IMG/VR virus record: IMGVR_UViG_2737471844_000002
Location: 10,565-74,564 of that record
Origin: a virus
Lineage: Duplodnaviria; Heunggongvirae; Uroviricota; Caudoviricetes
Strand: one strand, 5' to 3'
DNA: 64,000 nucleotides
The translations under genes and the position numbers were made by a program. Of the stretch, positions 4,362 to 64,000 are shown one piece after another (within the stretch, counting starts at the first letter, position 1; each line of letters begins with the position of its first letter). The notes under the pieces are model-generated. The model had not been told where the DNA came from and made no database searches. It was given only the letters and a program-made list of their open reading frames with translations.

Positions 4362-4640
4362 ATGAAGATTGAACAAATCGGAATGGCAGCTTTCAGGCAA
4401 CAGGCTGAAAGCGGTGGCGTGGATGAGTTCGTCGTGCAGCGGTTCAGTGGTGTGTATCACCTCTTCGCTGTGAATCGCCGCGCCGGGGTGTCCTATTTTC
4501 TACAGGAACGCCGTGGCGATTACAAGACGTGGCTGTCTCTTGACCGTGCCGCCGCGTTCCTGTCAGGGATTGGCGTTTCACGTTTTACCGTGCGTTTTGA
4601 GGATAATAAACATGCTGAAAAAGATGATCGGGGCCATTAA
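4362..4640 (+). CDS. hypothetical protein
   Basis: Internal ATG 4362 (MKIEQIG...) of track ORF 4326-4640; lies directly downstream of the palindrome cluster. Confidence 0.3.
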   Translation: MKIEQIGMAAFRQQAESGGVDEFVVQRFSGVYHLFAVNRRAGVSYFLQERRGDYKTWLSLDRAAAFLSGIGVSRFTVRFEDNKHAEKDDRGH

Positions 4641-5010
4641 AGCCGGTCAGGCGTATCTGGGGTGGGATGATGCCCTTTATCGCCAGACGCTGGCCCGCCT
4701 GACAGGTAAAACAAGCACCACACGCTGCAACCTCGATGAACTGCGCATCATCCGGGAATACATGCACGAACAGGGATTTCCGCGCAAAGCGCCCGCCGGT
4801 AAAGGTCGCCGCCCCCGTGTTGCAATGAGCAGAAAATCAGTATTATCCAAAATTGAAGCGTTGCTGGCTGATGCCGGTCGTTCCTGGGTGTATGCGGAAG
4901 GACTGGCATCTCACATGTATAAGCAACATGTGATCGAATGGCTGACAGATGATCAGCTGTTTGGGGTGATGGTGGCGCTGGTAAAAGATTCAAGAAGGAG
5001 AAATCAATGA
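4612..5010 (+). CDS. GemA-like (Mu gp16-like) regulatory protein
   Basis: ATG 4612 with gagga SD-like sequence upstream; 132-aa product resembles the Mu GemA/DUF1018 family (from memory). Confidence 0.5.
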   Translation: MLKKMIGAIKAGQAYLGWDDALYRQTLARLTGKTSTTRCNLDELRIIREYMHEQGFPRKAPAGKGRRPRVAMSRKSVLSKIEALLADAGRSWVYAEGLASHMYKQHVIEWLTDDQLFGVMVALVKDSRRRNQ

Positions 5011-5609: not shown

Positions 5610-6077
5610 ATGCAGACCTTCAGTGAAACAGATCTTCGCGATGCACAGGCACTGCTACCCGATTCCGTGCAGCAACTGATTAGCGTGATTGGCTTCCCCG
5701 CCCTGACCCGGTTAATCCGTTCTTTTGGTGGCGTGACGTTAAGCGGTAAAACCGGCGCACACGCCGAACGCACCGGCGGTGTCCATGCCCTGTTACATGA
5801 CGTGCTGACCGAAGACGAAATCAACAAACTGATCCGCTTTCTTGGCGGTGCGCCGTTTTATATTCCCCGTTGCGATCATGCGTTACGTGCCCTGCGTAAC
5901 TCCCGTTTTATGGCTGATTTACAGCAACATATAAAAGGCGGATGCTCACACCGGCAGGCGCTGGCACTGCTTTGTCCACGTTACGGAATTTCAGACCGGT
6001 ACGCATGGCAACTGATACACCGACGACAAAAACAGACTTCGCTGAAAAGCCCCACCCAGGTGGGGCTTTTTGATTAA
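5610..6077 (+). CDS. Mor/C-family transcriptional activator
   Basis: 155-aa ORF; product resembles the Mu Mor / C late-activator family with a C-terminal HTH-like region (from memory). Confidence 0.55.
   Translation: MQTFSETDLRDAQALLPDSVQQLISVIGFPALTRLIRSFGGVTLSGKTGAHAERTGGVHALLHDVLTEDEINKLIRFLGGAPFYIPRCDHALRALRNSRFMADLQQHIKGGCSHRQALALLCPRYGISDRYAWQLIHRRQKQTSLKSPTQVGLFD
6048..6072 (+). terminator. rho-independent terminator overlapping the mor-like stop
   Basis: agccccacc cagg tggggct hairpin followed by ttttt; overlaps the last codons of the ORF. Confidence 0.45.
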
Positions 6078-11047: not shown

Positions 11048-12643
11048 ATGGCACAGCTTGTTGATATTTACGGACGCCCGCTGAAACGTGAGGCACTCAA
11101 AACCACGCAGACGGTCAGAGTGGCGGAACGGCTGCGCATTTATCCAGACCACCCGTCGCGTGGTCTGAACATCAGAAAACTGCCGCGCATTCTGGAAGCC
11201 GCCGAGCGTGGTTATCTTCCTGCGCAGGCGATGCTGTTTGCGGATATGGAAGAGCGTGACGGGCACCTGTTCGCCGAGATGGAAAAGCGCAAAAAAGCGT
11301 TGCTGACGCTGGACTGGTCGGTGGAGCCGCCCCGCAATACCTCGAAGGCAGAAAAGGAGCTGGCCGCCGCCGTGGATGAATGGCTGCACGGCATCCCGGA
11401 CATGGAGGACATCATCCTCAACGGGATGACCAGTGTCGGTTACGGCTTCAGCTGTCAGGAAATCAGCTGGGCGTTCGTGGATAAAACGTGGTTACCGGAT
11501 GCGGTGACGCTGCGCCCGCATAACTGGTTCATTACCCTGCCGGAACACAATGACGAACTCCGGCTGGATGACGGCGGTCGCGGGGAAGACGGTAAGGACG
11601 GTTCCGCGCTGTGGCCGTTCGGCTGGCTGGTTCACCGTTACAACGCCCGGTCGGGATTTCTGGGTTCATCCGGTCTGTTCCGCGTACTGGTCTGGCCGTA
11701 TCTGTTCAAAAACTTTGCGCTGCGTGATATGGCGGAATTCCTGGAGATTTACGGCCTTCCGGCGCGTATTGCGTACTATGCACAGGGCACCAGTGACGAA
11801 GACCGGGACAACATTCTCGAAGCCCTGGTCAATCTGGGCCATGAAGCGGTGGCAGCCCTGCCGCAGGGTAACGAGATTGAGTTCAAGGAGGCCGCGTCCG
11901 GCGGACCGGAGGCGTTCATGTCGATGGTGGAATGGGCAGAGCGCACCACCTCAAAAGCAATTCTGGGCAGTACGCTGACCAGCCAGGCTGACGGTAAAAC
12001 CTCCACCAACGCGCTGGGTAATGTGCATAACGAGGTCCGGCACGACATTCTGGCCGCCGATGCGCGCCAGCTGTCCGGCATGTTCAGCAGCCTGATACAG
12101 ATGATGGCCAGCCTGAACGGCTGGCAGGATATCCCGCCACGCCGTCTGCCGCGTCTGGTGTTTGATGTGCAGCAGGAAGCCGACATTAAGGGCGTGGCGG
12201 AAGCCGTCAGTGTGCTGGTCAACAGTGTGGGGATGAAGGATATCCCGGCGTCGTGGGTGCGCAAAAAAACCGGTATCCCCACCCCGAAAGACGGCGAAGA
12301 GGTGCTGGTGCCGGTGGCACAGCGTCTCCCTGTGCAGGCGGGCCTCAGCCAGCTGCGTGAGCGGATGAATGTTGCCGCACTCAGTCAGCAGGACAACGGG
12401 GAGGACGACCTGGCACAGAACGCCATCGACCGGGCAGAGCTTCCGGCAGAGGCCATCGCGCAGGGGATGAACGAACTGGTGGCCCCACTGGTGCAGGCCA
12501 TACAGGAAGGCCGGGATGCAGACGAGGCCATGAACATACTGGCGGAAGCCTGGCCGGAACTGCCGGATGACACGCTGCGGCAGTTGCTGACGCAGGCATT
12601 CTTTGTGGCGGATATCTGGGGGCGACTGAATGCCGACAGCTGA
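11048..12643 (+). CDS. portal protein (Mu gp29-like, DUF935)
   Basis: 531-aa ORF immediately after the terminase; Mu-type portal sequence character. Confidence 0.8.
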   Translation: MAQLVDIYGRPLKREALKTTQTVRVAERLRIYPDHPSRGLNIRKLPRILEAAERGYLPAQAMLFADMEERDGHLFAEMEKRKKALLTLDWSVEPPRNTSKAEKELAAAVDEWLHGIPDMEDIILNGMTSVGYGFSCQEISWAFVDKTWLPDAVTLRPHNWFITLPEHNDELRLDDGGRGEDGKDGSALWPFGWLVHRYNARSGFLGSSGLFRVLVWPYLFKNFALRDMAEFLEIYGLPARIAYYAQGTSDEDRDNILEALVNLGHEAVAALPQGNEIEFKEAASGGPEAFMSMVEWAERTTSKAILGSTLTSQADGKTSTNALGNVHNEVRHDILAADARQLSGMFSSLIQMMASLNGWQDIPPRRLPRLVFDVQQEADIKGVAEAVSVLVNSVGMKDIPASWVRKKTGIPTPKDGEEVLVPVAQRLPVQAGLSQLRERMNVAALSQQDNGEDDLAQNAIDRAELPAEAIAQGMNELVAPLVQAIQEGRDADEAMNILAEAWPELPDDTLRQLLTQAFFVADIWGRLNADS

Positions 12644-13796
12644 CGATGTTGACCTGGGTTATGCGTATACCCTGAAACCGGAAGAAGCGATTACGTATTT
12701 CGAAAGCAAGGGATACGTTATCGGCTTCCGCTGGCACGATGTGAGGGACATCGCCAGTGCCCGGGCGTTCACGGTGGCAGGCGTGCTGAAACTGGATGTT
12801 CTGAAGGATATCCGTGATGGCCTGACGACGACACTGGCTGATGGCGGGACGTTCCGGGAGTTTGCAGCACAACTGGAACCACTGCTGGAATCAAAAGGCT
12901 GGCTGGGTAAAAAGCTGATTGTGGACGAGGACACCGGCGAACTGCACGGCAGACAGCTGACGCCGCGCCGGTTGCGCACGATATTTGATACCAACATTCA
13001 GTCCGCCTATAACGCCGGGCGTTATCAGCAACAGATGGCGAACGTGGCTGACCGGCCTTATTTTGAGCGCGTGGCGGTGATGGACCTTCACACCCGCCCG
13101 AAACACGCCGCCCTGAACGGTTTTACCGCCCGGGCGGATGACCCGGTCTGGGAGTATTTCTACGCGCCGGACGGATACGGATGCCGCTGCCGTATCCGGG
13201 CGCGTTCAGCGTCTGATGTGGAGAAATACGGCCTGACGGTGCAGAGCAGCGAGGGGCGGCTGGTTGAGGTTGAACAGGAATATGGTCAGCCGGGCCAGAC
13301 CATCAGAACGATGGGGCTGAAGATGCCGGACGGCTCCGTGTATACCGCCGACCCGGGCTTCGGATTTAATCCCGGTCGGGTGGCATGGCAGCCGGAACCG
13401 GAAAAATACGATTACCGCAGCGCCCGCCAGTATGTCACCGGCACTCTGACCGGGCCGGATTTTGCCCGGGGACTGGCGAACGTCAGCGAACTGGATGCGC
13501 GCCAGCGATATCCGCTGGCCATCCGTTCACCGGAACAGGTCGCCGCCACGGGCGCTGCACGGCAGACGGTAAACCTTACGGCTGATGTCATGAAGCGCCT
13601 CAGTGCAGCAGACACGCCCCCGACCGCCGCCGACTATGTGCTGATGCAGCAGACCATCGAACGGGCGGAGCATGTCACACAGGACGGCAACGCGTGGCGG
13701 TATGCGTTACAGTCGGGCGACCGCTGGTCGGTGGTGACGGTGGAGGATGACGCGCTGACAGACTGGGTTATGCAGGATACCCCGGAGGCATCATGA
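12630..13796 (+). CDS. head morphogenesis protein (Mu F-like)
   Basis: 388-aa ORF overlapping the portal stop; resembles the Mu F / minor head family. Confidence 0.7.
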   Translation: MPTADDVDLGYAYTLKPEEAITYFESKGYVIGFRWHDVRDIASARAFTVAGVLKLDVLKDIRDGLTTTLADGGTFREFAAQLEPLLESKGWLGKKLIVDEDTGELHGRQLTPRRLRTIFDTNIQSAYNAGRYQQQMANVADRPYFERVAVMDLHTRPKHAALNGFTARADDPVWEYFYAPDGYGCRCRIRARSASDVEKYGLTVQSSEGRLVEVEQEYGQPGQTIRTMGLKMPDGSVYTADPGFGFNPGRVAWQPEPEKYDYRSARQYVTGTLTGPDFARGLANVSELDARQRYPLAIRSPEQVAATGAARQTVNLTADVMKRLSAADTPPTAADYVLMQQTIERAEHVTQDGNAWRYALQSGDRWSVVTVEDDALTDWVMQDTPEAS

Positions 13797-30050: not shown

Positions 30051-31475
30051 ATGTCTGTATTAATTTCAGGGGCGCTGATTAATGGCGCTGGCGTTCCGAT
30101 GGCGGAATGCAAAATTTATTTAGATGCACTGGTTAATACCAGTGAAGTGGTCACTGAGTCATTTGCGGTTATTGAAACCGATGCGGCGGGACAGTATGCC
30201 TTTGAAGCACAAAAAGGCAAATACACCGTACACATCAAGCAAAAGAACGGCCCCAAGTGCTGCGTGGGTGACATTTCGGTTTACGACGACTCAAAGCCCG
30301 GCACGCTGAACGACTTTCTGACTGCCCTTGATGAAAGCGATTTAAAGCCGGATGTAGTGAAACGCTTTGAGGAACTGGCGCAACAGGCACAGCAGAGCGC
30401 GGAAGCCGCCGCTGGCAGCGAACAACAGGCAGGACAACACGCCACTGATGCACAGCAGATTAAGGCCGACTGTCAGGCGCTGGCGAAAGACGTACAGCAG
30501 AACGCCGACGCGGTTGCGGAGGGTAAACAACAGGTCGAAAATCTGGTCTCACAGGTTGAGAATGCCGCCGAGGAGGTAAAAAAGGACGCTGAAGCTGCTA
30601 AACAGGCCGCATCTGATGCAGAGCATGTCAGGGAGGATATTGACACCGCGTTATCTGCGACACTGAAAACGGCGAATCGTTTATCAGAGCTGGCTGATGA
30701 AGGTGAAGAGGCTCAGCAGGAATCCCGTGATAATCTTGGACTGAAAAGCGCTGCCACAATGACGCCACAGAGCGACATTCGTGACCGGACTGAAGGTCGT
30801 CTGGCGACACCTGGCGCATTTGGTTTTGGGCATATTTTTTTGCCCGCAGAGCGGATCCGTTTTAACACAGAGGATGATTTTCTGTCCTGGGTAAGGAATG
30901 CGACGCCGGGTGAATATTTTGTTGAGGGTGGCAGTAAAATCATATCCGGAGGTGTGTTGTTTAACGGGGTGGTCAGCATCCGGTGGGTTGAGGCACGCAA
31001 TAATCCACCGGAACCGCGATATACATCAAAGGCCATTATTTTCTACGGTATCAATGGCGATGTTTATTACAGCCGCTACTGGACAACAGGTAATGGTTAT
31101 CTGACTGGCTGGGAAAATCTGAAAATTACCTCACAGGACATTATCTCTCTTCTGTCCGGTATTGCTCCCGGTACCACGGACGGCTGGTACGGTGCAGGCA
31201 GTCTTGTACTGGCGGCTTATAACGGTAAGGGAGACGCAGACACCGACCGCCGGATAAAACGCGGTTACAGCTATCCGGGGTCACGCCTGAGCGCGGTTGA
31301 ATTTATGTGTCACGGCACGACCGGTAGCGGGGTTGGATATAACGGCAGCGTTTCCGTATATGTGCGGAGTTCTGGTGGTGGTATGCCGGGGTCATATCGG
31401 GCACTGTCAGGTGATGGGCTCGGGTCTGCCGGGTCAGCCAGTGTCATGATTGGTTTGTTCATACGTATTGCGTAG
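30051..31475 (+). CDS. side tail fibre protein (Phage_fiber_N / Stf-like)
   Basis: 474-aa ORF; N-terminus resembles lambdoid side-tail-fibre N domains, followed by an Ala/Gln-rich coiled segment. Confidence 0.65.
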   Translation: MSVLISGALINGAGVPMAECKIYLDALVNTSEVVTESFAVIETDAAGQYAFEAQKGKYTVHIKQKNGPKCCVGDISVYDDSKPGTLNDFLTALDESDLKPDVVKRFEELAQQAQQSAEAAAGSEQQAGQHATDAQQIKADCQALAKDVQQNADAVAEGKQQVENLVSQVENAAEEVKKDAEAAKQAASDAEHVREDIDTALSATLKTANRLSELADEGEEAQQESRDNLGLKSAATMTPQSDIRDRTEGRLATPGAFGFGHIFLPAERIRFNTEDDFLSWVRNATPGEYFVEGGSKIISGGVLFNGVVSIRWVEARNNPPEPRYTSKAIIFYGINGDVYYSRYWTTGNGYLTGWENLKITSQDIISLLSGIAPGTTDGWYGAGSLVLAAYNGKGDADTDRRIKRGYSYPGSRLSAVEFMCHGTTGSGVGYNGSVSVYVRSSGGGMPGSYRALSGDGLGSAGSASVMIGLFIRIA

Positions 31476-32142: not shown

Positions 32143-32183
32143 AAATAGTCCAGAAAAAATCGCGAAGTTACACACGCGGCGCG

Positions 32184-34727
32184 GTGGATGAAGCCATGGC
32201 CTCGCTGCGCCTGCTGCCGTCCTATCTGCGCGATCCGCTTATTCGCCACCTCTCCTTCCTTCGCAAAAAACAGGAAGCCGATCGCCGGAAAGGCAAAAAG
32301 AGCTGGCAGGCGGAACGCTATGCACGCGGAACCCTGCGCAAAATATTCGAACGTCTGGATCGCACTGACGGACGCTGGCTGACACCGGGTTATCGCTCCC
32401 TTGCCGGACGCGAACGCCTGGACGATTTGCTTTACCTGCCGCAGCTCAACAAACACCAGATACAGACGTTGGCCACCATGACGGCGGCGATGTTCAGCAG
32501 CACCTTCGAAAAGCTCTGCGATGGCTTTGGCGCCAGAGATGGCGAGCTGACCATGGATGTAATGTTGAAGGCTTACCGGATGCTGGCTCGTATCGCATTA
32601 CGCCTGCACATCATGCCGCCACATTACGAAGCCCTGAACAAGAGCGAACCGGATACGGAACTGCTGCCGGGCGCAATCCTTCGCCTGACCTGTGCGGACT
32701 GGTGGAAACGCAAACTGTGGCTGTTACGTTGCGAGTGGAGAGAAGAACAACTCCGCGCCGCCTGTCTGGTTTCCAGAAAAACATCGCCTTATCTGAGCCA
32801 GGACGCGTTAAGCGAGTTTCGCGCACAGCGCGAGAAAACACGCGATTTCCTGAAAAGTTTCATGCTGGAAAACGAAGACGGGTTCACGATTGATCTCGAG
32901 ACAGTGTATTACGCGGGAGTAAGTAACCCGGTTCACCGTAAGGCAGAAATGATGGCCACCATGAAGGGGCTGGAACTTCTGGCCGAAGCCCGTGGTGACA
33001 AAGCGGTGTTTCTGACTGTCACCTGCCCGTCAAAATACCACGCAACAACGGAGAACGGTCATCCGAATCCCAAATGGAACGGGGCCACCATGCGCGACTC
33101 CAGCGATTACCTGGTTAACACGTTTTTTGCGGCGGTCCGCAAGAAACTGAACCGCGACGGCCTGCGCTGGTATGGCATCCGCACGGTGGAGCCTCACCAT
33201 GACGGCACCGTGCACTGGCATATGATGGTCTTTGCCCATCCGGAAGAAATCGACACCATTGTGTCCCACACCCGCGATATTGCCATTCAGGAAGATCGTC
33301 ACGAGCTGGGCGATGATATTACTCCGCGCTTTAAGGCGGAGTATGTCGACGGCTCAAAAGGCACGCCAACCAGCTACATCGCCACCTACATCGGAAAAAA
33401 CCTGGACAGCCGCGCCGTGGATGGCATCGCCCCGAAAACAGGCAAACCACGCGTTGACCACGAAACCGGAAAATCAATGGCCGAGAGCGTGGAGCGCGCC
33501 ATCGGCTGGGCGCGCCTTCACCGGGTCCGCCAGTTCCAGTTCTTTGGCATCCCCTCCCGTCAGGTGTGGCGTGAACTGCGCCGCCTTGCCAGCCAGATGG
33601 CACGCAACCCGGAAGGCCCGCAACGGCTGAAGGACGACGCAATGGATGCGGTACTCGCTGCCGCTGATGCCGGGTGTTTTGCCTCCTACATTGAAAAACA
33701 GGGTGGCGTACTTGTTCCACGCAAGGACTACCTGATTCGCACCGCCTACGACCTCGCAGATGAGCTGAACGATTACGGCGAACAGAGCGTACAGATTTAC
33801 GGGATCTGGTCACCACTCATCGGGGAATCCTCCCGTGTGTGCACGCACCCGGATAACTGGAAGCTGGTAAGACGTAAACCGGAAGCGGAAGACAGCGCCC
33901 GCGAAAATTGTTTTGACCTTCAGGGCGGCCCTGCCGCCCCTTGGACTCGTGGCAATAACTGTCCCCGTGTACAGGAAACGGACAACAACGGGACAGAACA
34001 GCCGGAAGAACGGCCAGCACCGTGGCCGCAGCTTCCTGACGGCGTTGATGTGGATGAATGGATGCGCTCACTGAAACGGCACGAACGCCGGGCGCTGATG
34101 CGTTCGCTGCGTGACAAACAGGCCAAAAACAGCAGTGATGAAATGCAGAACTGGACACAGAGCCGCAAACAGCCACAGCCTTTGCCTGATAAACACGAAT
34201 TACTCGCTAAAGAATGGCGGGAGTCTGCCGAATCTCTCGGCCTGCATATCGGTGAACAGCAGATGCAGCACCTGTTACGGGGCGGCAGCCTGTACGTTGA
34301 CGGCAGCATCATTGCACCGCAGGGATTTGAAATTGTACGCAAACCGGATACCCGCCCGGACAGCCGAATCACGCAGCTCTGGCAGCGCCTGAGCCGTAAT
34401 CACGGCGTAAGCAGCACGGAGATCCGCCATAACCCGGTCGCCAGCTATCTGGCACAGCTCGGGGCATCAGACCCCGAAGCCGCCGCACGCCTGGCATCCA
34501 CACTTCAGCAGGACCAGAACACCATGAAAACACCCGTTACCGTGCTTTCTGACATGCTGCGCGCCATTCGTGACGCAGAGCACGCACAGAGAATCAGTGA
34601 AACCACTGAACACGCCCGCCGCAAAGCAGACCTGCTGCGGGGTAGCCTGACCAGTGGCAACAAAAAACAGACAGAAACGGGATTCACAAATCCCGCAAAT
34701 GAGCAAAAAACGCGCCGCGATATATGA
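32184..34727 (+). CDS. A: P2-type replication initiation endonuclease gpA
   Basis: 847-aa ORF (GTG 32184 or ATG 32196); contains the rolling-circle initiator signatures VEPHHDGTVHWHMM and YIATYIGKNLD (paired Tyr). Confidence 0.8.
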   Translation: MDEAMASLRLLPSYLRDPLIRHLSFLRKKQEADRRKGKKSWQAERYARGTLRKIFERLDRTDGRWLTPGYRSLAGRERLDDLLYLPQLNKHQIQTLATMTAAMFSSTFEKLCDGFGARDGELTMDVMLKAYRMLARIALRLHIMPPHYEALNKSEPDTELLPGAILRLTCADWWKRKLWLLRCEWREEQLRAACLVSRKTSPYLSQDALSEFRAQREKTRDFLKSFMLENEDGFTIDLETVYYAGVSNPVHRKAEMMATMKGLELLAEARGDKAVFLTVTCPSKYHATTENGHPNPKWNGATMRDSSDYLVNTFFAAVRKKLNRDGLRWYGIRTVEPHHDGTVHWHMMVFAHPEEIDTIVSHTRDIAIQEDRHELGDDITPRFKAEYVDGSKGTPTSYIATYIGKNLDSRAVDGIAPKTGKPRVDHETGKSMAESVERAIGWARLHRVRQFQFFGIPSRQVWRELRRLASQMARNPEGPQRLKDDAMDAVLAAADAGCFASYIEKQGGVLVPRKDYLIRTAYDLADELNDYGEQSVQIYGIWSPLIGESSRVCTHPDNWKLVRRKPEAEDSARENCFDLQGGPAAPWTRGNNCPRVQETDNNGTEQPEERPAPWPQLPDGVDVDEWMRSLKRHERRALMRSLRDKQAKNSSDEMQNWTQSRKQPQPLPDKHELLAKEWRESAESLGLHIGEQQMQHLLRGGSLYVDGSIIAPQGFEIVRKPDTRPDSRITQLWQRLSRNHGVSSTEIRHNPVASYLAQLGASDPEAAARLASTLQQDQNTMKTPVTVLSDMLRAIRDAEHAQRISETTEHARRKADLLRGSLTSGNKKQTETGFTNPANEQKTRRDI

Positions 34728-34768
34728 AGCGCGCACAAAACAGGCGAAAGCGGGATTTAAAAATCCCG
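34677..34768. promoter_or_regulatory. two CGGGATT-N4-AATCCCG palindromes (candidate ParR centromere/operator)
   Basis: cgggattcacaaatcccg at 34677-34694 and cgggatttaaaaatcccg at 34751-34768, just upstream of parM. Confidence 0.35.
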
Positions 34769-34803
34769 TAAACGGTTAATTAACCAACATAAGGAAAATC
34801 GAC

Positions 34804-35763
34804 ATGAAAATTTGTATCGACGACGGCTCCACCAACATCAAGCTGGCATGGACTGAAAACGGCGAACGCCGCAACGCCATCAGCCCGAACAGCTTCAAGT
34901 CGGAATGGTCTGCGCCGTTCGGTGGCTCGCAGCCTGCGAACTACATGCTTGATGGCGTGCGCTATGGTTTTGATCCGGTCAGCGATCGCTTTGTCCAGAC
35001 GACCGACACGCAATACCAGTACAGCGATGTGAATGTCATTGCCATTCATCACGCGCTGGTCAAATCAGGCATCACGCCACAGGAAGTGGATGTTGTTGTC
35101 ACCCTGCCACTGAGCGAATATTTCGACACTAACGCCCAGCCGGACATGGCCAACATCAACCGCAAAAAAGCGAACGTTATGCGCCCGGTGGAGTACCAGA
35201 ACGGTGAGGCATTCACTATCCGTAACGTGCGGGTTATGCCTGAATCCATTCCGGCTGGCTTTAAGGCACTGGCTGACATGAGTCCGTTTGAATCCCTGCT
35301 GATTGTGGATTTGGGCGGAACCACGCTGGATGTGGCAAAGGTTCAGGGGCAACTGGCAGGTATCAGCCAGGTGTTTTGCGATCCACACGTAGGCGTTTCT
35401 CTGATGGCCGATGCCGTACTGTCGGTGATGGCCACTAACGGTATGCGCACCAGTCACCACATAGCCAATACCATTATCGAACATCGCCATGATGAAGCCT
35501 GGCTGCGCCAGCACATCCACAATGACGCGCATTACGCCAGCCTGATGGCGGTTATTCGTGAAAAGGAAGAAACACTGAAACAACGTGTTATCCGCGCGCT
35601 GGCGGTTTTTTCGGGTTACGGGCGGGTGATGGTTGTCGGTGGAGGGGCGGAGATTGTGGCACCCGCTATCCGCGAAGCCTGCGGAGTTAATGCGACTTTC
35701 ATCGCGGACGGGGTGCCACAGTTTGCTCTGGTTAATGGGCTGTACGCAATGGACAAGGAGTAA
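34804..35763 (+). CDS. parM: ParM/StbA actin-like segregation ATPase
   Basis: 319-aa ORF; strong resemblance to plasmid R1 ParM (MKICIDDGSTNIKL, YSDVNVIAIHHAL, LLIVDLGGTTLD). Confidence 0.8.
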   Translation: MKICIDDGSTNIKLAWTENGERRNAISPNSFKSEWSAPFGGSQPANYMLDGVRYGFDPVSDRFVQTTDTQYQYSDVNVIAIHHALVKSGITPQEVDVVVTLPLSEYFDTNAQPDMANINRKKANVMRPVEYQNGEAFTIRNVRVMPESIPAGFKALADMSPFESLLIVDLGGTTLDVAKVQGQLAGISQVFCDPHVGVSLMADAVLSVMATNGMRTSHHIANTIIEHRHDEAWLRQHIHNDAHYASLMAVIREKEETLKQRVIRALAVFSGYGRVMVVGGGAEIVAPAIREACGVNATFIADGVPQFALVNGLYAMDKE

Positions 35764-35767
35764 ACCA

Positions 35768-36079
35768 ATGACGACTCCAACCAGACGGATAAGTTTCTAT
35801 CTGAAGCCCACCGCCGTCAAGAACGAAGGAGAAGCATGCGCCTGGCTGGACAGCCTTACACCAGAAGCCCGCAAAAGCGGCCAACGCGTGGCTTTTCTGG
35901 CCGGGCTGGCACTTCTGAAAATGAATCCGGCAGAGGCTTACCGACTGGCTGCATGGGCTGATGATGAGGTGTTATCAGTGACACAAACCAAGACAGAACG
36001 CCCCGCGTCACAGCCAGTATCAACCGCACAGATAACCAGTCAGATGGCCGGAAATATCCGGGCGTTATTTCCTGAATAA
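35768..36079 (+). CDS. parR: ParR/StbB-like partition adaptor
   Basis: ATG 35768 five nt after the parM stop; 103-aa product with N-terminal RISFYLKP...LDSLTPEARKSGQ pattern resembling R1 ParR. Confidence 0.5.
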   Translation: MTTPTRRISFYLKPTAVKNEGEACAWLDSLTPEARKSGQRVAFLAGLALLKMNPAEAYRLAAWADDEVLSVTQTKTERPASQPVSTAQITSQMAGNIRALFPE

Positions 36080-36122
36080 CATCAGGGCGTATTCGCCCTG
36101 CCACCAATCCCATAACATAAAG

Positions 36123-36152
36123 AACGGGGTGCAAATCACTATGCACCCCGTT
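36123..36152. promoter_or_regulatory. 11-bp perfect inverted repeat
   Basis: aacggggtgca, 8-nt loop, tgcaccccgtt; in the AT-rich gap between parR and the ATPase gene; no T-run follows on the plus strand. Confidence 0.3.
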
Positions 36153-36457
36153 CCAATACAAACCATCAGAAGATCTACACATCTTTCTCAAATGGCCAAG
36201 TAATCGAGCTGGTTCAGGAATAAGCAGGCTGCCAACACAAGTGAAGGAGATAAAACTGTAGAACTGATCAATCGTTGGAAACAAGTATTGACAGTATGTT
36301 CGAGTAACCCAACTGGATAGATTTTATGCTGATTATCCATACAGTAAAAAAGTGAGGATACTCTTTGAATTACGCCAGCAAGAGTGGTAACATTAGTCAA
36401 TGATTTTCATTAATGTAGTTACCAGCTTACACAAGCTGATGTTTTATTGGGGGTTTT

Positions 36458-37540
36458 ATGGTAAACGTGAGGGAGGATGAACTTTTCAAACTCATCGAGC
36501 AAGGCATCAAAGGCAACGCAAATGCATTTACACTCCTATGCAGAAAGATGATTAACAACATCCGTAAAAATGATGAGGCTTTAGCTTCTAAGCTGGCTTC
36601 GTTAGTTGCTGAGGGAACAGTATTACGTGGGGCATCTAGTAAGGCTCCTATGCCTGTGGATGGAGACTCCAGACGAAACCTTTTGCAGGAAACATCTGTC
36701 AACGCAATTGTTGAAGAACCTGTATGGAATACGGATATCTCAAAGAAGCTGGAGTCAATTGTTAACGAAAGAGAGAATGCGGTTTCTTTGTTCAAAGCTG
36801 GTCTTGAACCTGTGAAGACGGTTTTACTTTCTGGCCCGCCAGGCGTAGGCAAAACAATGTCCGCACATTGGCTTGCTGCAAAGTTAAATTTACCTCTTTT
36901 AACATTGGATCTCTCATCTGTAATGAGTTCTCTTTTGGGAAAAACAGGTAATAATATTAAATCCGTTATGGATTATGCCAAAGAGAAACCATGTGTCCTT
37001 TTGCTTGATGAATTTGATGCTGTTGCAAAAAGACGTGATGATGACAGGGACGTTGGAGAATTAAAACGTTTAGTTACTGTACTCCTACAGACCATAGATG
37101 AGTGGCCAGCGACCTCGCTTCTTGTTGCTGCGACTAATCACCCTGATATCTTAGATCCGGCTGTTTGGCGTCGATTTGAGCACATCCTTAAATTTAATAT
37201 GCCATCAGTAGAACTGATAGATAGATATTTAGTCAATCATAATATTGAACCTGAACTATCTAAAAAACTTGCACCATTATTAGATGGCATGTCCTTTGCC
37301 ATCATTAACCGTATTTTGAATTTCTCCAAAAAGAATGAGGTACTTAGAAATATTCCATTTGAAAGCTCATTAATAGAAGCCGTAATTACGGAGAGGGTTT
37401 CATTGGATGAGTTTAGCGATAATGATCTCAATATAATTAAATATCATTTTGACGGTTTTTCAAATAGGAAGATAGCTGAATTAGTTGGTGTTTCACATCC
37501 AACAATCGCGAATAAATTACAAAAGTGGGGGATTAAATGA
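36458..37540 (+). CDS. AAA+ ATPase with C-terminal HTH domain
   Basis: 360-aa ORF; Walker A GPPGVGKT, Walker B LLLDEFD, sensor/Arg-finger region ATNHPDILDPAVWRRFE; C-terminal GFSNRKIAELVGVSHPTIANKLQKWG helix-turn-helix; AT-rich. Confidence 0.8.
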   Translation: MVNVREDELFKLIEQGIKGNANAFTLLCRKMINNIRKNDEALASKLASLVAEGTVLRGASSKAPMPVDGDSRRNLLQETSVNAIVEEPVWNTDISKKLESIVNERENAVSLFKAGLEPVKTVLLSGPPGVGKTMSAHWLAAKLNLPLLTLDLSSVMSSLLGKTGNNIKSVMDYAKEKPCVLLLDEFDAVAKRRDDDRDVGELKRLVTVLLQTIDEWPATSLLVAATNHPDILDPAVWRRFEHILKFNMPSVELIDRYLVNHNIEPELSKKLAPLLDGMSFAIINRILNFSKKNEVLRNIPFESSLIEAVITERVSLDEFSDNDLNIIKYHFDGFSNRKIAELVGVSHPTIANKLQKWGIK

Positions 37541-39741
37541 TGGAAAGGAACTTACTTTTAGGTAACGGTCATGTTCTGACAAAAAAGGAACCTTTGCCTA
37601 AAGGAAGGGATGGTAAGCGCTATCCCTATACTCTTGAAGAAGTAAGGGAGCATTTAAACCCAGAGATTGATACTTTACTCTCACGCTTTCGCAGTTTGGA
37701 TGATGCGGCTAAGCCAAGGGGGGAGAGTGTATTCAATTTAACTTTACACCCAGCGTTTTTGGGTAAAAGCTACTTTCCGGAAGGATTGCTTAGAGCGACA
37801 GGTTTACGGGATGTCGGTAGCCGTCAGGTAATCATTCGCCCACGGAAAGCGGCACGTCAGTGCGATCAGAATAAGGACTTAGTAACGGCGCAACTGTTTG
37901 TTAGCGGTGATGATGATGCCGTTATAAGATTTAAGGAAATTTTAAATTCCCCTACAGCTCCGAAGGGCGTACAAAAGGATTTGATCGAAATTGAAAGTGT
38001 TAGCTTTTTTGAAGGAAAAGAGAGAGCACGCAATTTTGAGCATGCGAAAAGTGATTTGATAAAATTTGAAGTGGTTCTTCATGCTGGGGTTGAAGACGAT
38101 GATATCGTTAAAGCCTATATTAGCTATGCGGCACAATATGATGTCTCTGTTGATTACAAAAGTAGAATCCAAGTTGGTGGGCTGACTTTCATCGTTGCAC
38201 ACGCGCGACCTGAAGATATGAAAAAAACACTCGATTTTTCATTAATCCGCGTTGTGCGGCCGATGCCGTCTCTCAGGTGTACTCAGCCGAACATTGTCAG
38301 AAAGTTATCTAATATAGTTACACCGGAGCTCCCTAATTCTAAAGCTGTTCTTGAATCCGAACGTATTGCCATTTTTGATGGTGGCTTGGGGACAGCTGAC
38401 TTGAGTAATTGGGTTACGGAATACGTGTATCCAGACACCAAAGAAACAAGCGGATTATTATTGCAGCACGGTAATGAAGTGACATCCACTTTCTTATTCG
38501 GACGTGTCGAGGAAAATGCACCTTCTTTTAAAAGACCGTTTATGAATGTAGATCATTATAGAGTTCTTTCACCGACATCAGGTGACAATGGCAATTGGGA
38601 TTTATTTGATGTCCTTAAGAAAATACAGTCCGTTCTTGATAGTGGTGACTATAAGTTCGCTAATCTAAGTATTGGTCCTCATCTTCCAATTGGTGATGAT
38701 GAGGTTCATGTATGGACTGCTGTTTTAGACCAAATCTGTGCTAAGCATGGGATATTACTTACTGTTGCTGTTGGGAATGATGGCAATGAGGACGGTGATG
38801 CAGCGAGAATACAACCTCCTTCCGATATGGTAAACGCGCTAGCGATTGGTGCTGCTGATCGTAGCGGTGAAAAATGGGGGCGGGCACCATATAGCTGTAT
38901 TGGGCCAGGCAGAAGCCCCGGATTCGTTAAACCTGATGGTGTTATTTTTGGTGGAAGCGACGACGAGCCTTTTTACACTTACAACCCTCTGCTTGGTTCT
39001 ATAGTTGGAGTTCAAGGAACCAGTTATGCCTCTCCATTAGCATTGAGAACGGCCGCTGGAGTTGCGGCTCTATCAGGAACTCCATTGAACACCATTGCAT
39101 TGAAAGCGTTGCTTGTTCATCATGCTGAAACATCAAGAAAATATTCGCGTGAACATATCGGTTGGGGACGGTTTAGTGAGGATCCTAACGTTTTAATCGA
39201 TTGTCCAAATGATACTGCTACAGTAATTTACTATGGTTCATTAGCAAAAAATAAATATTTAAGGGCACCGATCCCATTCCCTGATGTTCCCTTTGACGAA
39301 GCATTTGAGCTTACCGCTACTTTATGCATTCAAACCCCAGTAGATCCTGAACATTCAGTAAACTATACAAGGGCCGGTATGCAGGTAACTTTCCGCCCAA
39401 GATTCGGCCTTGACGATACCGATACAGATGATTTCTTTGGTCAAAAAAGCCAGTATAAGACTGAAAGGGAGTGTAGGAGTGAAGGTCATAAATGGGAAAC
39501 TTGTTTGCACAGAAGCAAAAAGTTCAGTGCTGATACATTATTAAGCGATCCAGTTTTTGATATACGGTATCATGCCCGAGATTCTTCGCGCCATGTTAAG
39601 GGAGTTTCAGCCCCTGATATGCAATATGCGATGGTAATAAGCGTAAGGGTAAAAGACTTTGATTTATATAATGTTATTCGCCAGCGATATACAATTCTGA
39701 ATCCTATTCAACTGCGCACACAAATTTCTCTCGACACGTAA
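37537..39741 (+). CDS. S8 subtilisin-like serine protease with N- and C-terminal extensions
   Basis: 734-aa ORF with ATGA overlap to the ATPase gene; catalytic triad motifs IAIFDGGLG (Asp codon 38377-38379), LQHGNEV (His codon 38467-38469), GTSYASP (Ser codon 39022-39024) in canonical D-H-S order and spacing. Confidence 0.8.
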   Translation: MMERNLLLGNGHVLTKKEPLPKGRDGKRYPYTLEEVREHLNPEIDTLLSRFRSLDDAAKPRGESVFNLTLHPAFLGKSYFPEGLLRATGLRDVGSRQVIIRPRKAARQCDQNKDLVTAQLFVSGDDDAVIRFKEILNSPTAPKGVQKDLIEIESVSFFEGKERARNFEHAKSDLIKFEVVLHAGVEDDDIVKAYISYAAQYDVSVDYKSRIQVGGLTFIVAHARPEDMKKTLDFSLIRVVRPMPSLRCTQPNIVRKLSNIVTPELPNSKAVLESERIAIFDGGLGTADLSNWVTEYVYPDTKETSGLLLQHGNEVTSTFLFGRVEENAPSFKRPFMNVDHYRVLSPTSGDNGNWDLFDVLKKIQSVLDSGDYKFANLSIGPHLPIGDDEVHVWTAVLDQICAKHGILLTVAVGNDGNEDGDAARIQPPSDMVNALAIGAADRSGEKWGRAPYSCIGPGRSPGFVKPDGVIFGGSDDEPFYTYNPLLGSIVGVQGTSYASPLALRTAAGVAALSGTPLNTIALKALLVHHAETSRKYSREHIGWGRFSEDPNVLIDCPNDTATVIYYGSLAKNKYLRAPIPFPDVPFDEAFELTATLCIQTPVDPEHSVNYTRAGMQVTFRPRFGLDDTDTDDFFGQKSQYKTERECRSEGHKWETCLHRSKKFSADTLLSDPVFDIRYHARDSSRHVKGVSAPDMQYAMVISVRVKDFDLYNVIRQRYTILNPIQLRTQISLDT

Positions 39742-54187: not shown

Positions 54188-54251
54188 AGGCTTTCATTTC
54201 AAACCATTGTAGTCCAGTTTTTTGTATAGTACCCTGCTCATTACGGATGAC

Positions 54252-55460
54252 ATGTGTGATTTGGAATTTCAGGGTACCATTATGAATGTTATTTCATCGT
54301 TAAAACAGCTTAACAGACAGCGAAATATTAAAACAAAAAAGATAAAGACGAAGGCCAGACTGGCATTTCTAAAAATGCGATACAGAAGGAAAACATCATT
54401 ACAGCCGGATAGTTATAAAACAGTGTGCATTTTCATGCACATGCAAGCCATTGGTGACGGCATCGTTACCTCAGGGTTTATTAAACAACTTCAAAAATCC
54501 GGTATGGTGGTATATGTGATAGCACCTTCAAGAGTATCATTCCTCTTTACTGACATTGTTGGCGTGGATGCCTTTATATCTTACGAGAAAAATAAATTTA
54601 ACGAACTAAAAGCAAAGATAAAAAAACTGAATGTAGATCTTGTTGTTGACTTCTCAAATTTTGATAACACAGCGATAACCAGATTGCAAACACTACATTT
54701 ACTTAGACCTAAACACTCTATCTGTTTTAATCATCCTGCCGTAACTATTTTTGATACAAATATAATCGATAATCGTTCCATTCACACATCTGAAAGAATG
54801 AAAAAAGTTTTATCTTTACTAAAGATAAAAAATAATAATTATGCTGCAGCGCTTAATTTTGACAACAAAATATATGAACCAGCAAATATTGTTGCAAATG
54901 AATTCAGGAAAAAAAACAAAAAATTAGTTATATTTAACCCTTATGGCTCTCAGAATAGCAGAACCTTATCTGATGAACAGATAAAAAAAGTACTAGCTTA
55001 CCTTAATAACCTTAAGGGATATCACACAATAGTTTTTAATATGGGAAAACAGATTAATCACAATGGATTGGATAATGTGTCTCTATCTCCATTTTCTGAT
55101 GCCGGATGTTCATTTGCATTGGTTCGCCATGCTGATTTTGTTATAACTGTAGATACTGCCATTGTACATTTAGCCAGTGCATTAAACATTAGACAATACT
55201 GTATATATAATAACAGAATGCATGAAGGAAAATTCGAAAATAATATTGTGTGGGGGCCAAACAGCAAATTAGCGACTCAACTCACCACATCCGAACATCT
55301 AAGGTCTGAAGGGGGCGACGATATGCATAAATTCGACATAATGATCTTAATTAATGCTATCAAACAAGATTTGACAAACGATATACCGAATTACCACTCG
55401 GATTTAGGTTGTAAAAATAGTTCCAGAAACCCAGAATTAGAAAGTAGCAATTCTTTATAA
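54252..55460 (+). CDS. GT9-like glycosyltransferase (heptosyltransferase fold), moron
   Basis: Track ORF begins at TTG 54222; ATG 54252 or 54282 more likely; strongly AT-rich; C-terminal VDTAIVHLASALN and central FNPYGSQNSRTL motifs resemble WaaC/WaaF-type LPS heptosyltransferases. Confidence 0.55.
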   Translation: MCDLEFQGTIMNVISSLKQLNRQRNIKTKKIKTKARLAFLKMRYRRKTSLQPDSYKTVCIFMHMQAIGDGIVTSGFIKQLQKSGMVVYVIAPSRVSFLFTDIVGVDAFISYEKNKFNELKAKIKKLNVDLVVDFSNFDNTAITRLQTLHLLRPKHSICFNHPAVTIFDTNIIDNRSIHTSERMKKVLSLLKIKNNNYAAALNFDNKIYEPANIVANEFRKKNKKLVIFNPYGSQNSRTLSDEQIKKVLAYLNNLKGYHTIVFNMGKQINHNGLDNVSLSPFSDAGCSFALVRHADFVITVDTAIVHLASALNIRQYCIYNNRMHEGKFENNIVWGPNSKLATQLTTSEHLRSEGGDDMHKFDIMILINAIKQDLTNDIPNYHSDLGCKNSSRNPELESSNSL

Positions 55461-61132: not shown

Positions 61133-61289
61133 AGCTTCAGCCCCTTGTATCCGTTAAATGATTCGGCAACAATCATCACCCACCACGCGCGTAATCTCAC
61201 CCCTGCGCCATTCTCCCGCCACGGCGACAACAAAAAGCAGTAACCCCCTCCGCACGCACATGCGACCATGCCGCACAGGGAGGGAACAG

Positions 61290-62399
61290 ATGACCGACAC
61301 CACCATGCAATTGCTCAGTCAGGGCACAGACCCCGTGAAAATGCCGGATTTTGATATTCTCGCGGAGGGTAAAACGCTGTCAGGCGTGGCAGAGCGCCTG
61401 ATGAGCCTGTCACTGACCGACAACCGGGGATTTGAGGCGGACCAGCTCACCATCACGCTGGATGATGCGGATGGTCAGTTGCAGCTACCGCCACGGGGCG
61501 CGCGCCTGACGGTTCTCATTGGCTGGAAGGGAGAACCGCTGACAGAAAAAGGCACTTACATTGTTGATGAAATCGCTCACGAAGGACCGCCGGACAGGCT
61601 GACTGTTTCAGCCAGAAGCGCAGATTTTCGGGATGAATTTAACGTTAAACGTGAGGTGTCCTGGCATGATGTGACCGTTGAGAGTGTGGTATCCGCCATC
61701 GCTCATCGGTATGGTCTGAAACCGCAAATCAGCGAAATGCTGATGGATATCGAAATCGACCACGCCGACCAGACCGAAGAAAGCGACATGTCCTTTCTTA
61801 CGCGCATGGCGGAAATGCTGGGCGCAATCACCACCGTAAAAAGCGGCAATCTGTTATTCATCATGCCAGGTGGTGGCGTGAACGCACAGGGCCAGCCGTT
61901 GCCCTCGTTCGCCATTACACGCAGCAGCGGCGATCGCCATCAGTTCCGTATTGCTGACCGCGAGGCGTATACGGGGGTACGCGCCTACTGGCTTGATCTT
62001 AATTACGGGAAAAAGAAAAAAGTCAGCGTGAAACGCCGCAAACCGCCAAAACCCAAAAAGGAGAAAAGCAGCAGCCGTGAAGGTGATTATATGGAAGGCG
62101 CGGAAGGCAATGTGTTTGTGTTACGCAAGACTTATCAGAACGAGCAGGCAGCAAGACGCGCAGCGGCGGCAAAGTGGCAGCAACTACAACGCGGAGCCGC
62201 ATCATTCTCCATCACGCTGGCACGTGGACGAGCAGAACTCTACCCCGAAATGCATGGCACGGTAACAGGATTTAAAAGCGAGATTGATAATCAGGACTGG
62301 ATTATTGCAAAAGCCGAGCACACCATTGATAACAGTGGCTTTACCACGCAGCTTGAGCTTGAAGCCAAAATCCCGGAATGGATAGCAGAAACAGAGTAA
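61290..62399 (+). CDS. D: tail protein gpD
   Basis: ATG 61290 preceded by cagggaggg SD (track start 61158 is probably too far upstream); P2 gpD-like; on the opposite strand to FI-U. Confidence 0.75.
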   Translation: MTDTTMQLLSQGTDPVKMPDFDILAEGKTLSGVAERLMSLSLTDNRGFEADQLTITLDDADGQLQLPPRGARLTVLIGWKGEPLTEKGTYIVDEIAHEGPPDRLTVSARSADFRDEFNVKREVSWHDVTVESVVSAIAHRYGLKPQISEMLMDIEIDHADQTEESDMSFLTRMAEMLGAITTVKSGNLLFIMPGGGVNAQGQPLPSFAITRSSGDRHQFRIADREAYTGVRAYWLDLNYGKKKKVSVKRRKPPKPKKEKSSSREGDYMEGAEGNVFVLRKTYQNEQAARRAAAAKWQQLQRGAASFSITLARGRAELYPEMHGTVTGFKSEIDNQDWIIAKAEHTIDNSGFTTQLELEAKIPEWIAETE

Positions 62400-62593: not shown

Positions 62594-63259
62594 ATGAATA
62601 TGCAAATTTTTATCGCACCAGCAGCCACAGTTGCTGCAGTCTGCCTTGCTGCATATTTTGCTTTACGAAATGAACGTAAAAAGAAAGCACTTGAGATTAG
62701 AACAACTCAACTAGATCGAATATCAGAGCTAGTAAACCGAGCATCTACCAATTTGATGCAATATACAGGTACTCTTGCCTCTATACTGGAAGCGCACGCC
62801 AAAGATAATTATCTACCGAACAAAAAATTTGACATTAATGTAATTAGCAAATGGAAAGATTGCCTCGATGAGAGTGAGGTCTGGGCGATTGATAGACAGC
62901 AACTAAGAACATGTCAGCACAGTCTGGAGTTTCATCGTGAAAAAGAATGGGCTGAATGGAAAAAAATAATTCCACCATTACTTGATAAAATTGACCAATT
63001 TTTTCTCATATCTAAGCCAGGGCAACCTGTTACGTTTATAAATGGCCAAAACAAAACAGCTGATGAACTACTTGTTTTCTCAAGATATTTGAGAAAACAA
63101 ACAGCAGAAATTGAATCAGTACGTCAGCTGTTACTTTCTCAAATGAGAGAGGAATTCATCGAGTTAACTAGCTTTGAACCTGTCACAATGTTTAGCTTAT
63201 TTAAATCAATAAAGAAAAATGTCATGCAATTTTTCTGTATCAGTGCTCTTAAAAATTGA
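62594..63259 (+). CDS. membrane-anchored protein of unknown function (moron between D and ogr)
   Basis: 221-aa ORF; single N-terminal TM helix (IFIAPAATVAAVCLAAYFAL); strongly AT-rich; own terminator downstream. Confidence 0.5.
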   Translation: MNMQIFIAPAATVAAVCLAAYFALRNERKKKALEIRTTQLDRISELVNRASTNLMQYTGTLASILEAHAKDNYLPNKKFDINVISKWKDCLDESEVWAIDRQQLRTCQHSLEFHREKEWAEWKKIIPPLLDKIDQFFLISKPGQPVTFINGQNKTADELLVFSRYLRKQTAEIESVRQLLLSQMREEFIELTSFEPVTMFSLFKSIKKNVMQFFCISALKN

Positions 63260-63408: not shown

Positions 63409-63669
63409 ATGTTCCGTTGTCCGCTTTGTGGCGCATCTGCCCGTATCCGCACCAGTCGTCCGGAAAATGATTCAAACACCGTGCGGCAAAAGTATTACCA
63501 GTGTAACAACCTGGAATGCGGCGTATGCTTCTCAACACTGGAAGCTTTCCATAAATTCACATCGAAACACGCCTCCGGCATCCACTCTTCAGAAGATATC
63601 CCGTGGCATGAGCTGCCAGCTTCACACAGGGGAAACAATCAGATGAGCTTGCCTTTACCTCAGAATTAA
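63409..63669 (+). CDS. ogr: Ogr/Delta-family zinc-finger late transcription activator
   Basis: 86-aa ORF starting MFRCPLCG...RTSR...YYQCNNLECG; matches the Ogr C-x2-C ... C-x4-C zinc finger. Confidence 0.75.
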   Translation: MFRCPLCGASARIRTSRPENDSNTVRQKYYQCNNLECGVCFSTLEAFHKFTSKHASGIHSSEDIPWHELPASHRGNNQMSLPLPQN

Positions 63670-63859: not shown

Positions 63860-64000
63860 ATGTCGCAAAAATCGCTTACGGCCATCACGTTCTGCGTGAC
63901 GGCAATCCTCATCATCTGGATGTTGCACGGTTCGCTGTGTGAAATACGGATGAGCTTCTGGGGAGCGGAGTTTGCGGCGTTCTTACAGTGTAAGCAGTAA
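63860..64000 (+). CDS. Hok/Gef-family type I toxin-like small membrane protein
   Basis: 46-codon ORF (below the ORF-track cutoff) with aaaaggag SD; hydrophobic helix then SLCEIR...EFAAFLQCKQ, resembling the Hok family (cf. HokA SLCELH...ELAAFLACK); overlapped by track ORF 63730-63942 in another frame (mok-like). Confidence 0.5.
   Translation: MSQKSLTAITFCVTAILIIWMLHGSLCEIRMSFWGAEFAAFLQCKQ

Follow-up and report, generated by a model that had tools for sequence, protein, structure and literature searches.

The parM-parR cassette and its carrier

The DNA analysed here, referred to as the window, is a stretch of 64,000 nucleotides (nt) from the tailed-phage record IMGVR_UViG_2737471844_000002 of IMG/VR (positions 10,565 to 74,564 of that record). 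We describe a pair of genes in this window, parM and parR, which follow the replication gene A of a P2-like prophage and code for an actin-like ATPase and a ribbon-helix-helix-type adaptor, together with the cis region just upstream of them. This cis region contains two palindromic boxes, each located in one copy of a direct repeat. The positions of these features are collected in Table 1.

Table 1. Features of the parM-parR locus and the toxin gene at the window end (window coordinates; aa, amino acids)
Feature	Position	Strand	Description
Gene A, 3' 90%	32173-34727	+	P88-type P2-family rolling-circle replication endonuclease; Phage_GPA E=6e-131
39-nt direct repeat, copy 1	34661-34699	.	Holds box 1; in the last codons of gene A
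Box 1, CGGGATT-N4-AATCCCG with centre CACA, CGGGATTCACAAATCCCG	34678-34695	.	Candidate ParR site, left half of a putative two-part centromere/operator
39-nt direct repeat, copy 2	34734-34772	.	Holds box 2; in the intergenic space between A and parM
Box 2, CGGGATT-N4-AATCCCG with centre TAAA, CGGGATTTAAAAATCCCG	34751-34768	.	Candidate ParR-binding site
12-bp AT-rich palindrome, GGTTAATTAACC (GATTAATTAATC in most relatives)	34774-34785	.	Between box 2 and the ribosome-binding site
parM	34804-35763	+	Actin-like ATPase, 319 aa, intact; ATG at 34804
parR	35768-36079	+	Ribbon-helix-helix-type adaptor, 103 aa, intact
G+C-rich hairpin	36083-36100	.	First of two
G+C-rich hairpin	36122-36153	.	Second of two; inverted repeat I17, perfect 12-bp arms
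Hok/Gef-family toxin open reading frame	63860-64000		46 aa; HOK_GEF Pfam 29.9 bits against a cut-off of 22; stops at the window end

Residues 2-316 of the window ParM match residues 2-318 of the R1 ParM structure 1mwk over the full length (E=6.3e-93 in a search of PDB), and two Pfam domains, StbA_N (PF06406, E=2e-82, 275 bits) and the ParM C-terminal domain (PF21523, E=6e-69, 231 bits), were found far above their cut-offs. The initial annotation of this locus, in which the gene was called a ParM/StbA actin-like ATPase, is thus confirmed. The window protein is 47% identical to R100 ParM, and in pairwise alignments it has the same nucleotide-binding motifs as R1 ParM (DDGSTNIK, PESIPAG, DLGGTTLD and GGGAE). 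The cores of these nucleotide-binding and hydrolysis motifs (DDGST, PESIPAG, DLGGTT, GGGA) are invariant among all ParM proteins that we found in a phage context.

The small gene behind parM had been described as ParR-like and as starting 5 nt later; the identity is correct, and the exact gap is 4 nt. The window ParR matches the Plasmid_stab_B (ParR/StbB) family (PF10784, E=6.7e-24, 84 bits, cut-off 25), and its N-terminal 56 aa are 34% identical to those of R100 ParR, which is somewhat longer (116 aa). Used alone, the window ParR had no match in PDB; a family profile composed of the window ParR, four phage relatives and R100 ParR matched residues 7-96 of the pB171 ParR structure 2jd3 with E=2e-13. 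In R100 ParR, the C-terminal tail is the part that contacts ParM. The tail of the window protein (...GNIRALFPE), of the form N-x-x-x-L(F/I), aligns with the KKNAMKLIN of R100 ParR, the N and L being invariant in the six sequences. The comparison with R1-type parM and parR therefore bears out both names and, judged by sequence, the window pair is a genuine, intact ParM/ParR of the R1/pB171 type II (ParMRC) kind.

The carrier can be assigned to the P88-like phages (Xuanwuvirus, Peduoviridae), i.e., it is evidently a P2-like prophage. Fourteen phage records, from Xuanwuvirus or unclassified relatives, match the stretch at 93-96% identity, and the order in all 14 is replication endonuclease, ParM and partition protein. 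The map of P88 reads int, C, cox, ..., A, parM, parR, a few variable genes, portal, terminase, ..., hok. The Hok-like toxin that had been noted at the end of the window is real, its HOK_GEF score being above the cut-off, and its P88 equivalent is gp52. The names ParM and “partition protein” were already in use for the cassette in RefSeq, GenBank and PHROGs. In a tblastn search with the window ParM, matches came from 16 of 50,697 phage records, all of them P88-like phages apart from the phage-plasmid D6; P2 was without the cassette, in agreement with the initial statement that type II partition is absent from the canonical P2 genome. Among 5426 complete Escherichia coli genomes, 1307 (24%) contain the block A-parM-parR, with 1453 copies in chromosomes and 2 on plasmids.

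Several observations bear on the state in which these elements exist. Genes for an integrase, a C repressor and Cox are present in P88-like genomes, and both P88 and phiSM were obtained as active phages from lysogens. In the annotation of P88 and its relatives we found no plasmid-type replication gene, the P2-type rolling-circle endonuclease being the only one. One phage-sized circular “plasmid” record was found, NZ_CP148288.1 in PLSDB, from E. coli strain Z1323PEC0009, a cat isolate; its 34,461 bp represent a complete P88-like genome (int, C, cox, A, parM, parR). The chromosome of a human isolate, Z1323HEC0067 (NZ_CP148378.1), contains a phage with 100% identity to it over the 24 kb compared, and the plasmid record may therefore represent excised or induced DNA. 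A relative from Plesiomonas, in assembly GCA_009183595.1, was found on a contig of 32,167 bp, which is also phage-sized. It had been suggested that the element may be maintained episomally as a phage-plasmid; with 1453 of 1455 E. coli copies chromosomal, and with integrase, C repressor and Cox encoded, such a normal state is not supported.

The initial annotation offered, as an alternative, that a hotspot had captured plasmid stability genes. The parMR pair is on the same strand as gene A, always after gene A and before a variable cargo slot; the genes past parR vary among P88-like phages, while parMR is constant. Homology of the window to other P88-like phages stops at ~36080-36200. The G+C content of parMR (0.55-0.56) equals that of the phage backbone, and that of the cargo is 0.40-0.43. 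Thus, parMR is a part of the backbone, and the variable slot begins after the two hairpins at 36083-36153, which close the conserved module. We rejected hotspot capture on the basis of the constant presence of parMR (14/14 records, 90/91 loci), its backbone-like G+C content and position upstream of the slot, a separate ParM clade, and the same slot in diverged prophages.

Using P88-like loci from IMG/VR, the phage collection and genomes, we estimated intactness and the ratio of nonsynonymous to synonymous substitution rates (dN/dS). For parM, 90 of 91 loci were intact and dN/dS was 0.065; for parR, 57 of 57 were intact and dN/dS was 0.24. Gene A of the same elements, for which intactness is not comparable, had a dN/dS of 0.13, higher than that of parM. 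These values indicate strong purifying selection acting on both parM and parR. The concern that parM might be truncated does not hold for the full-length window gene, nor for all but one of the related copies. Both genes are intact even in decayed prophages: one in O157:H7 MB9-1, with an IS3 insertion and frameshifts in tail genes, and another in SD134209, with a truncated gene A. An O157:H7 allele of parR with a differing 3' end (315 nt) was also observed.

The cassette also occurs outside the P88-like group. In a protein search with ParM, the P88-like cluster (92-99% identity) was followed by a gap, and the next relatives had 54-62% identity. Four of these were examined, one each from Plesiomonas, Hafnia, Serratia and Enterobacter; every one is a P2-like prophage, and parMR again occupies this slot, after Phage_GPA and before variable genes, portal and terminase. 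Identities between lineages are 52-63% for ParM, 29-50% for portal, 39-55% for terminase and 32-61% for GpA; for the close Serratia/Enterobacter pair they are 74.5% for ParM, 86% for portal and 80% for terminase. In a neighbour-joining tree, the phage-context ParM proteins form one clade apart from R100 ParM and other homologues, the context of the latter being plasmid-like or unexamined. Chromosomal ParM proteins with ~50% identity (Mangrovibacter, Dickeya) were considered as phage copies and rejected because their contexts are those of integrated plasmids or conjugative elements. A scan of genome contigs with a single ParM protein for diverged phage copies returned near-identical copies only, and two scans of IMG/VR returned mostly P88-like contigs and added three loci of the Enterobacter/Serratia type. 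With the same slot in diverged prophages and a ParM clade of its own, the cassette represents a phage-adapted lineage of long standing, not one captured recently.

Paired boxes upstream of parM

The two 18-bp palindromes had been placed at 34677 and 34751; both are present, although the first starts at 34678. Both have the form GGG-N10-CCC, and CGGGATT-N4-AATCCCG has only these two matches in the 64-kb window with up to two mismatches allowed, compared with a shuffled expectation of 0.28. Outside the two boxes we found no enrichment of CGGGATT/AATCCCG or of GGGATT elsewhere in the prophage. Box 1 is within the coding 3' end of gene A, whereas box 2 starts 73 bp past the start of box 1 (~7 helical turns), 53 nt before the ATG of parM. 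The two copies of the 39-nt direct repeat (family D1 of the repeat search) have 79% identity and the same spacing of 73 nt. An open reading frame of 41 aa (34654-34779) spans both boxes and reads repeat 2 in the relative frame that gene A uses for repeat 1 (KQAKAGFKNPVNG versus KKQTETGFTNPANE); it probably reflects the repeat in the DNA, and we do not take it for a gene. The AT-rich palindrome behind box 2 is possibly a weak -10 region or an operator. Its core ATTAAT is kept in the Plesiomonas and Hafnia relatives, and in P88-like sequences positions 34775 and 34784 are polymorphic, with the symmetry mostly retained.

Among 63 unique P88-like sequences, the GGGA/TCCC cores of the boxes are nearly invariant and the common polymorphisms are in the box centres, although conservation within this set is little informative, the sequences being 93-100% identical. 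The diverged lineages are more instructive. The region upstream of parM in Plesiomonas and Hafnia could not be aligned to the window by BLAST. Nevertheless, GGG-N10-CCC boxes are found upstream of parM in all three lineages, two in each and no more: in the window, representing the P88-like phages, boxes 1 and 2 are 125 and 52 nt before the ATG (spacing 73 bp); in Plesiomonas, 131 and 59 nt (72 bp); and in Hafnia, 128 and 55 nt (73 bp). The chance expectation for such a box pair is ~1e-5 per lineage, for a pattern that was defined after looking at the data. Serratia and Enterobacter have another paired element at this position, with 20-nt inverted arms, GGGAAC(A/G)A(T/A)ATAGAAAAAT, 26-28 bp apart. 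In Hafnia and Enterobacter extra open reading frames are located between gene A and parM, and the repeats remain beside parM, not beside gene A. The suggestion that the palindromes could be ParR sites has thus gained support: comparable paired elements upstream of parM in diverged relatives make them good candidates.

The boxes could alternatively act as RNA. The window boxes fold into hairpins of -9.2 and -11.6 kcal/mol; on the minus strand, where T-rich runs come after them, both were scored as terminator-like. The boxes of Plesiomonas and Hafnia have stems of 3-4 bp and loops of 10 nt, with z-scores of -0.1 to -2.8; that is, the potential to form a hairpin is not kept. We rejected an RNA hairpin or attenuator as a conserved feature, stable hairpins being found by folding in the P88-like lineage only. 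Because hairpin stability is not conserved, what is conserved is the arrangement of the triplets, two of them separated by one helical turn in each box, with the second box about seven turns from the first. Such phasing of the GGG...CCC triplets would be better accounted for by the binding of ribbon-helix-helix dimers than by a structured RNA.

The layout can be compared to that of R1 and R100, in which the order of cis site, parM and parR is the same, and the ParM proteins, the N-terminal DNA-binding region and the tail of ParR are all similar, as described above. The cis region is also two-part in either case: the sites, which in the phage are candidates, form two clusters separated by a spacer, and neighbouring half-sites are offset by 11 bp, one helical turn. 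R1 parC consists of ten direct 11-bp iterons arranged as 2 x 5 around a 39-bp promoter spacer (PMC2241845). The phage region, in contrast, has two palindromic boxes, i.e., four putative half-sites, and a spacer of 55 bp, with no consensus promoter between the boxes and with box 1 in the coding end of gene A. The putative centromere layout also differs from that of pB171. A further distinction from R1 and R100 is the carrier, an integrating P2-like phage and not a low-copy plasmid.

Expression and possible roles of the cassette

The interval from A to parM was scanned in the window, P88, Plesiomonas and Hafnia and showed neither a sigma-70 promoter of consensus type nor a terminator on the plus strand. 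In Enterobacter, the sole promoter-like match overlaps the ATG of parM, and a plus-strand terminator-like match is inside an open reading frame upstream of the repeats. In view of this, transcripts that start at the early lytic promoter and cover cox...A probably extend into parMR; the simplest reading is that parMR is co-transcribed with these early genes. If expression is early, the likely substrate is an extrachromosomal circular phage genome, as would be present after infection or excision.

The model that we favour, to which we assign a probability of roughly 0.55, is that the cassette is a functional-looking type II module in the conserved backbone of P88-like phages and several other lineages of P2-like phages, and that it acts on circular phage DNA. 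Expressed from the early lytic promoter, ParR dimers are predicted to bind the two GGG-N10-CCC boxes, each box offering a pair of inverted half-sites separated by one helical turn; with their spacing of 73 bp, the two boxes would be a reduced, two-part counterpart of R1 parC. ParM filaments, capped by the ParR-box complexes, would then push copies of the phage DNA apart. The module would serve to distribute or position phage circles and would have no part in the upkeep of a plasmid prophage. P2-type phages replicate to monomeric circles and package from them; a plasmid-style machine is thus physically plausible in this setting.

There are precedents in other integrated elements. SrpMRC of SXT/R391 integrative and conjugative elements is expressed only on activation and is needed for the stability of the excised circle; its centromere consists of four 13-bp repeats (PMC4489591). 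Like the P88-like cassette, it is a type II partition locus in a normally chromosomal element; however, SrpM is in another branch of ParM, related to IncA/C plasmids, SrpR is without a recognisable ParR domain, and the carrier is a conjugative element and not a phage. In prophage CGP3 of Corynebacterium glutamicum, AlpAC is switched on early, and the circular phage DNA does not replicate efficiently without it (PMC4446434). Here, too, an integrated prophage encodes an actin-like protein and an adaptor that binds upstream sites, although AlpC and AlpA are distant in sequence, belonging neither to the StbA/ParM subfamily nor to Plasmid_stab_B, the adaptor gene comes first, the host is actinobacterial and the phage type is unrelated. 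Both precedents fit an action on circular phage DNA. The only other phage with such a ParM in the 50,697 records, D6, has a StbA-type gene of 48% identity. D6 is P1-like, and its prophage is a true plasmid, whereas P88-like phages integrate. The P88-like cassette is, in sum, an uncharacterised member of a well-known system, in a carrier that is unusual but not unprecedented.

Several points weigh against our model. Among the P88-like sequences, the overall conservation of the boxes is not above that of their flanks. The phage offers four half-sites, compared with ten iterons in R1, and a complex capable of capturing filaments may not form on them; the boxes could be only an operator. A weak, non-consensus promoter could overlap box 2, in which case parMR would be expressible in lysogens. 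What a phage that integrates, and that kills its host within one cycle, would gain from partition is not obvious. The circular record NZ_CP148288.1 and the Plesiomonas contig of 32,167 bp leave some room for an episomal state. In the literature that we searched, no functional study of a P88-like parMR cassette was found.

A more far-reaching form of the same model is that a minimal ParMRC with 2 x 2 half-sites is a core function of the early operon across a broad clade of P2-like phages, acting on monomeric circles or on the newly circularised genome. We regard this as tentative, and on balance somewhat doubtful. Within it there are two options. The module may spread copies between daughter cells, raising the yield of lysogens or virions, or it may cooperate with endonuclease A, which is an HUH enzyme. 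The model for such cooperation is R1, where both ParM and ParR attach to the HUH relaxase TraI and raise its activity (PMC4949242). If the early-operon form is true, an actin-like cytoskeleton belongs to the normal life cycle of a prophage family present in about one quarter of E. coli genomes.

An action directed at the host or at competitors is an unlikely alternative. ParMR expressed in lysogens would disturb the partition of incoming plasmids or phage-plasmids with related centromeres, as a form of incompatibility or exclusion, or would assist another DNA-processing enzyme. The strong selection seen even in decayed prophages (truncated gene A, IS insertions) is consistent with this, as are the stimulation of TraI by R1 ParM and ParR (PMC4949242), considering that phage parMR directly follows gene A, and the reported role of ParR specificity in setting plasmid incompatibility in other systems (PMC9426499). 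However, a lysogenic role is at odds with the missing promoter consensus; the boxes are lineage-specific and beside the genes, as expected of a self-directed centromere; and the R100 parC iterons differ from them. The defence models of PADLOC matched neither ParM nor ParR, and we rejected parMR as a defence system, as only the neighbouring IetA/IetS genes were flagged.

Less probable still is that P88-like elements persist as low-copy circles, with parMR and hok providing partition and post-segregational killing. A partition module and a Hok/Gef toxin are classic plasmid-stability functions, both kept in P88; the 34,461-bp PLSDB record is a whole P88-like genome; the contig of the Plesiomonas relative is phage-sized; and the sole other phage with such a ParM is the phage-plasmid D6. 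Conversely, a sister strain has the twin of the “plasmid” record in its chromosome, the integration functions are retained, nearly all copies in complete E. coli genomes are chromosomal, and the elements are without a plasmid-type replication gene, their endonuclease belonging to the lytic early operon. The least probable alternative, an inert relic of an old plasmid recombination with palindromes left over from a duplication of the gene A 3' end or serving as RNA hairpins or minus-strand terminators, could draw on the duplication-like 39-nt repeat, the T-rich runs and the stable window hairpins, but it is contradicted by a parM dN/dS below that of the essential gene A, by the intactness of nearly all parM copies, by the position of the cassette, which is the same even in phages whose portal proteins share 29-50% identity, and by Plesiomonas and Hafnia, which keep the GGG...CCC frame and the 72-73 bp phasing and not the hairpin potential.

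ParMRC is the textbook machine of plasmid segregation. Here it is a routine component of an integrating phage family found in 24% of complete E. coli genomes, and purifying selection on parM is stronger than on the replication gene of the phage itself, which suggests that the cassette serves a function for the phage. The comparative data provide a small experimental target, namely two 18-bp boxes, 73 bp apart. It should also be noted for annotation purposes that a “plasmid segregation protein ParM” beside a P2-type gene A denotes a prophage backbone, and not an integrated plasmid or phage-plasmid.

Interruption of gene A and variable regions

The cassette had been described as directly following a P2 gene A. 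The gene does code for a P2-family endonuclease; however, it is of the P88 type and truncated at its 5' end. Its product is 96% identical to residues 89-940 of P88 GpA (940 aa), the first 88 codons being gone, and DNA homology to related prophages begins at 32173 or 32223. The missing codons, the homology edge at 32173 and the Mu-like left flank together indicate that the P88-like prophage is interrupted. In the window, the sequence of the module is intact, but the insertion has separated it both from the early promoter and from a functional gene A.

The inserted element is a Mu-like transposable prophage occupying window positions 1-32172; it sits at codon 88/89 of the P88-like gene A, and its left end is beyond the window. 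The Mu-like genes are all on the plus strand and include DUF3164 (125-769), GemA (4513-5010), Mor (5610-6077), a Mu-type portal, Mu F (12630-13796), a tail module and a tail fibre (30051-31475). The right end at 32172 reads ...GTTACA, GAAGTTACA, with three AAATAAAG(C/T)GC motifs in the last 110 bp. A 24-kb stretch of this prophage, compared with INPHARED, had no phage covering more than 4% of it (77-81% identity over the covered part).

In the slot past parR, the window cargo (36458-39741) consists of IetA (AAA ATPase, 360 aa) and IetS (S8 peptidase, 734 aa), an anti-phage defence pair assigned by PADLOC. Many P88-like prophages of E. coli, among them the one in E2348/69, have the IetAS cargo as well. 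An open reading frame of 221 aa (62594-63259, G+C 0.43), located past the last tail genes (61158-62399) and before an Ogr/Delta-like zinc-finger gene (63409-63669), belongs to no Pfam or PHROG family, and this stretch looks like a second cargo slot. Another open reading frame, of 412 aa (54222-55460), is in a region with a G+C content of 0.35 and adjoins the P88-like tail-fibre genes.

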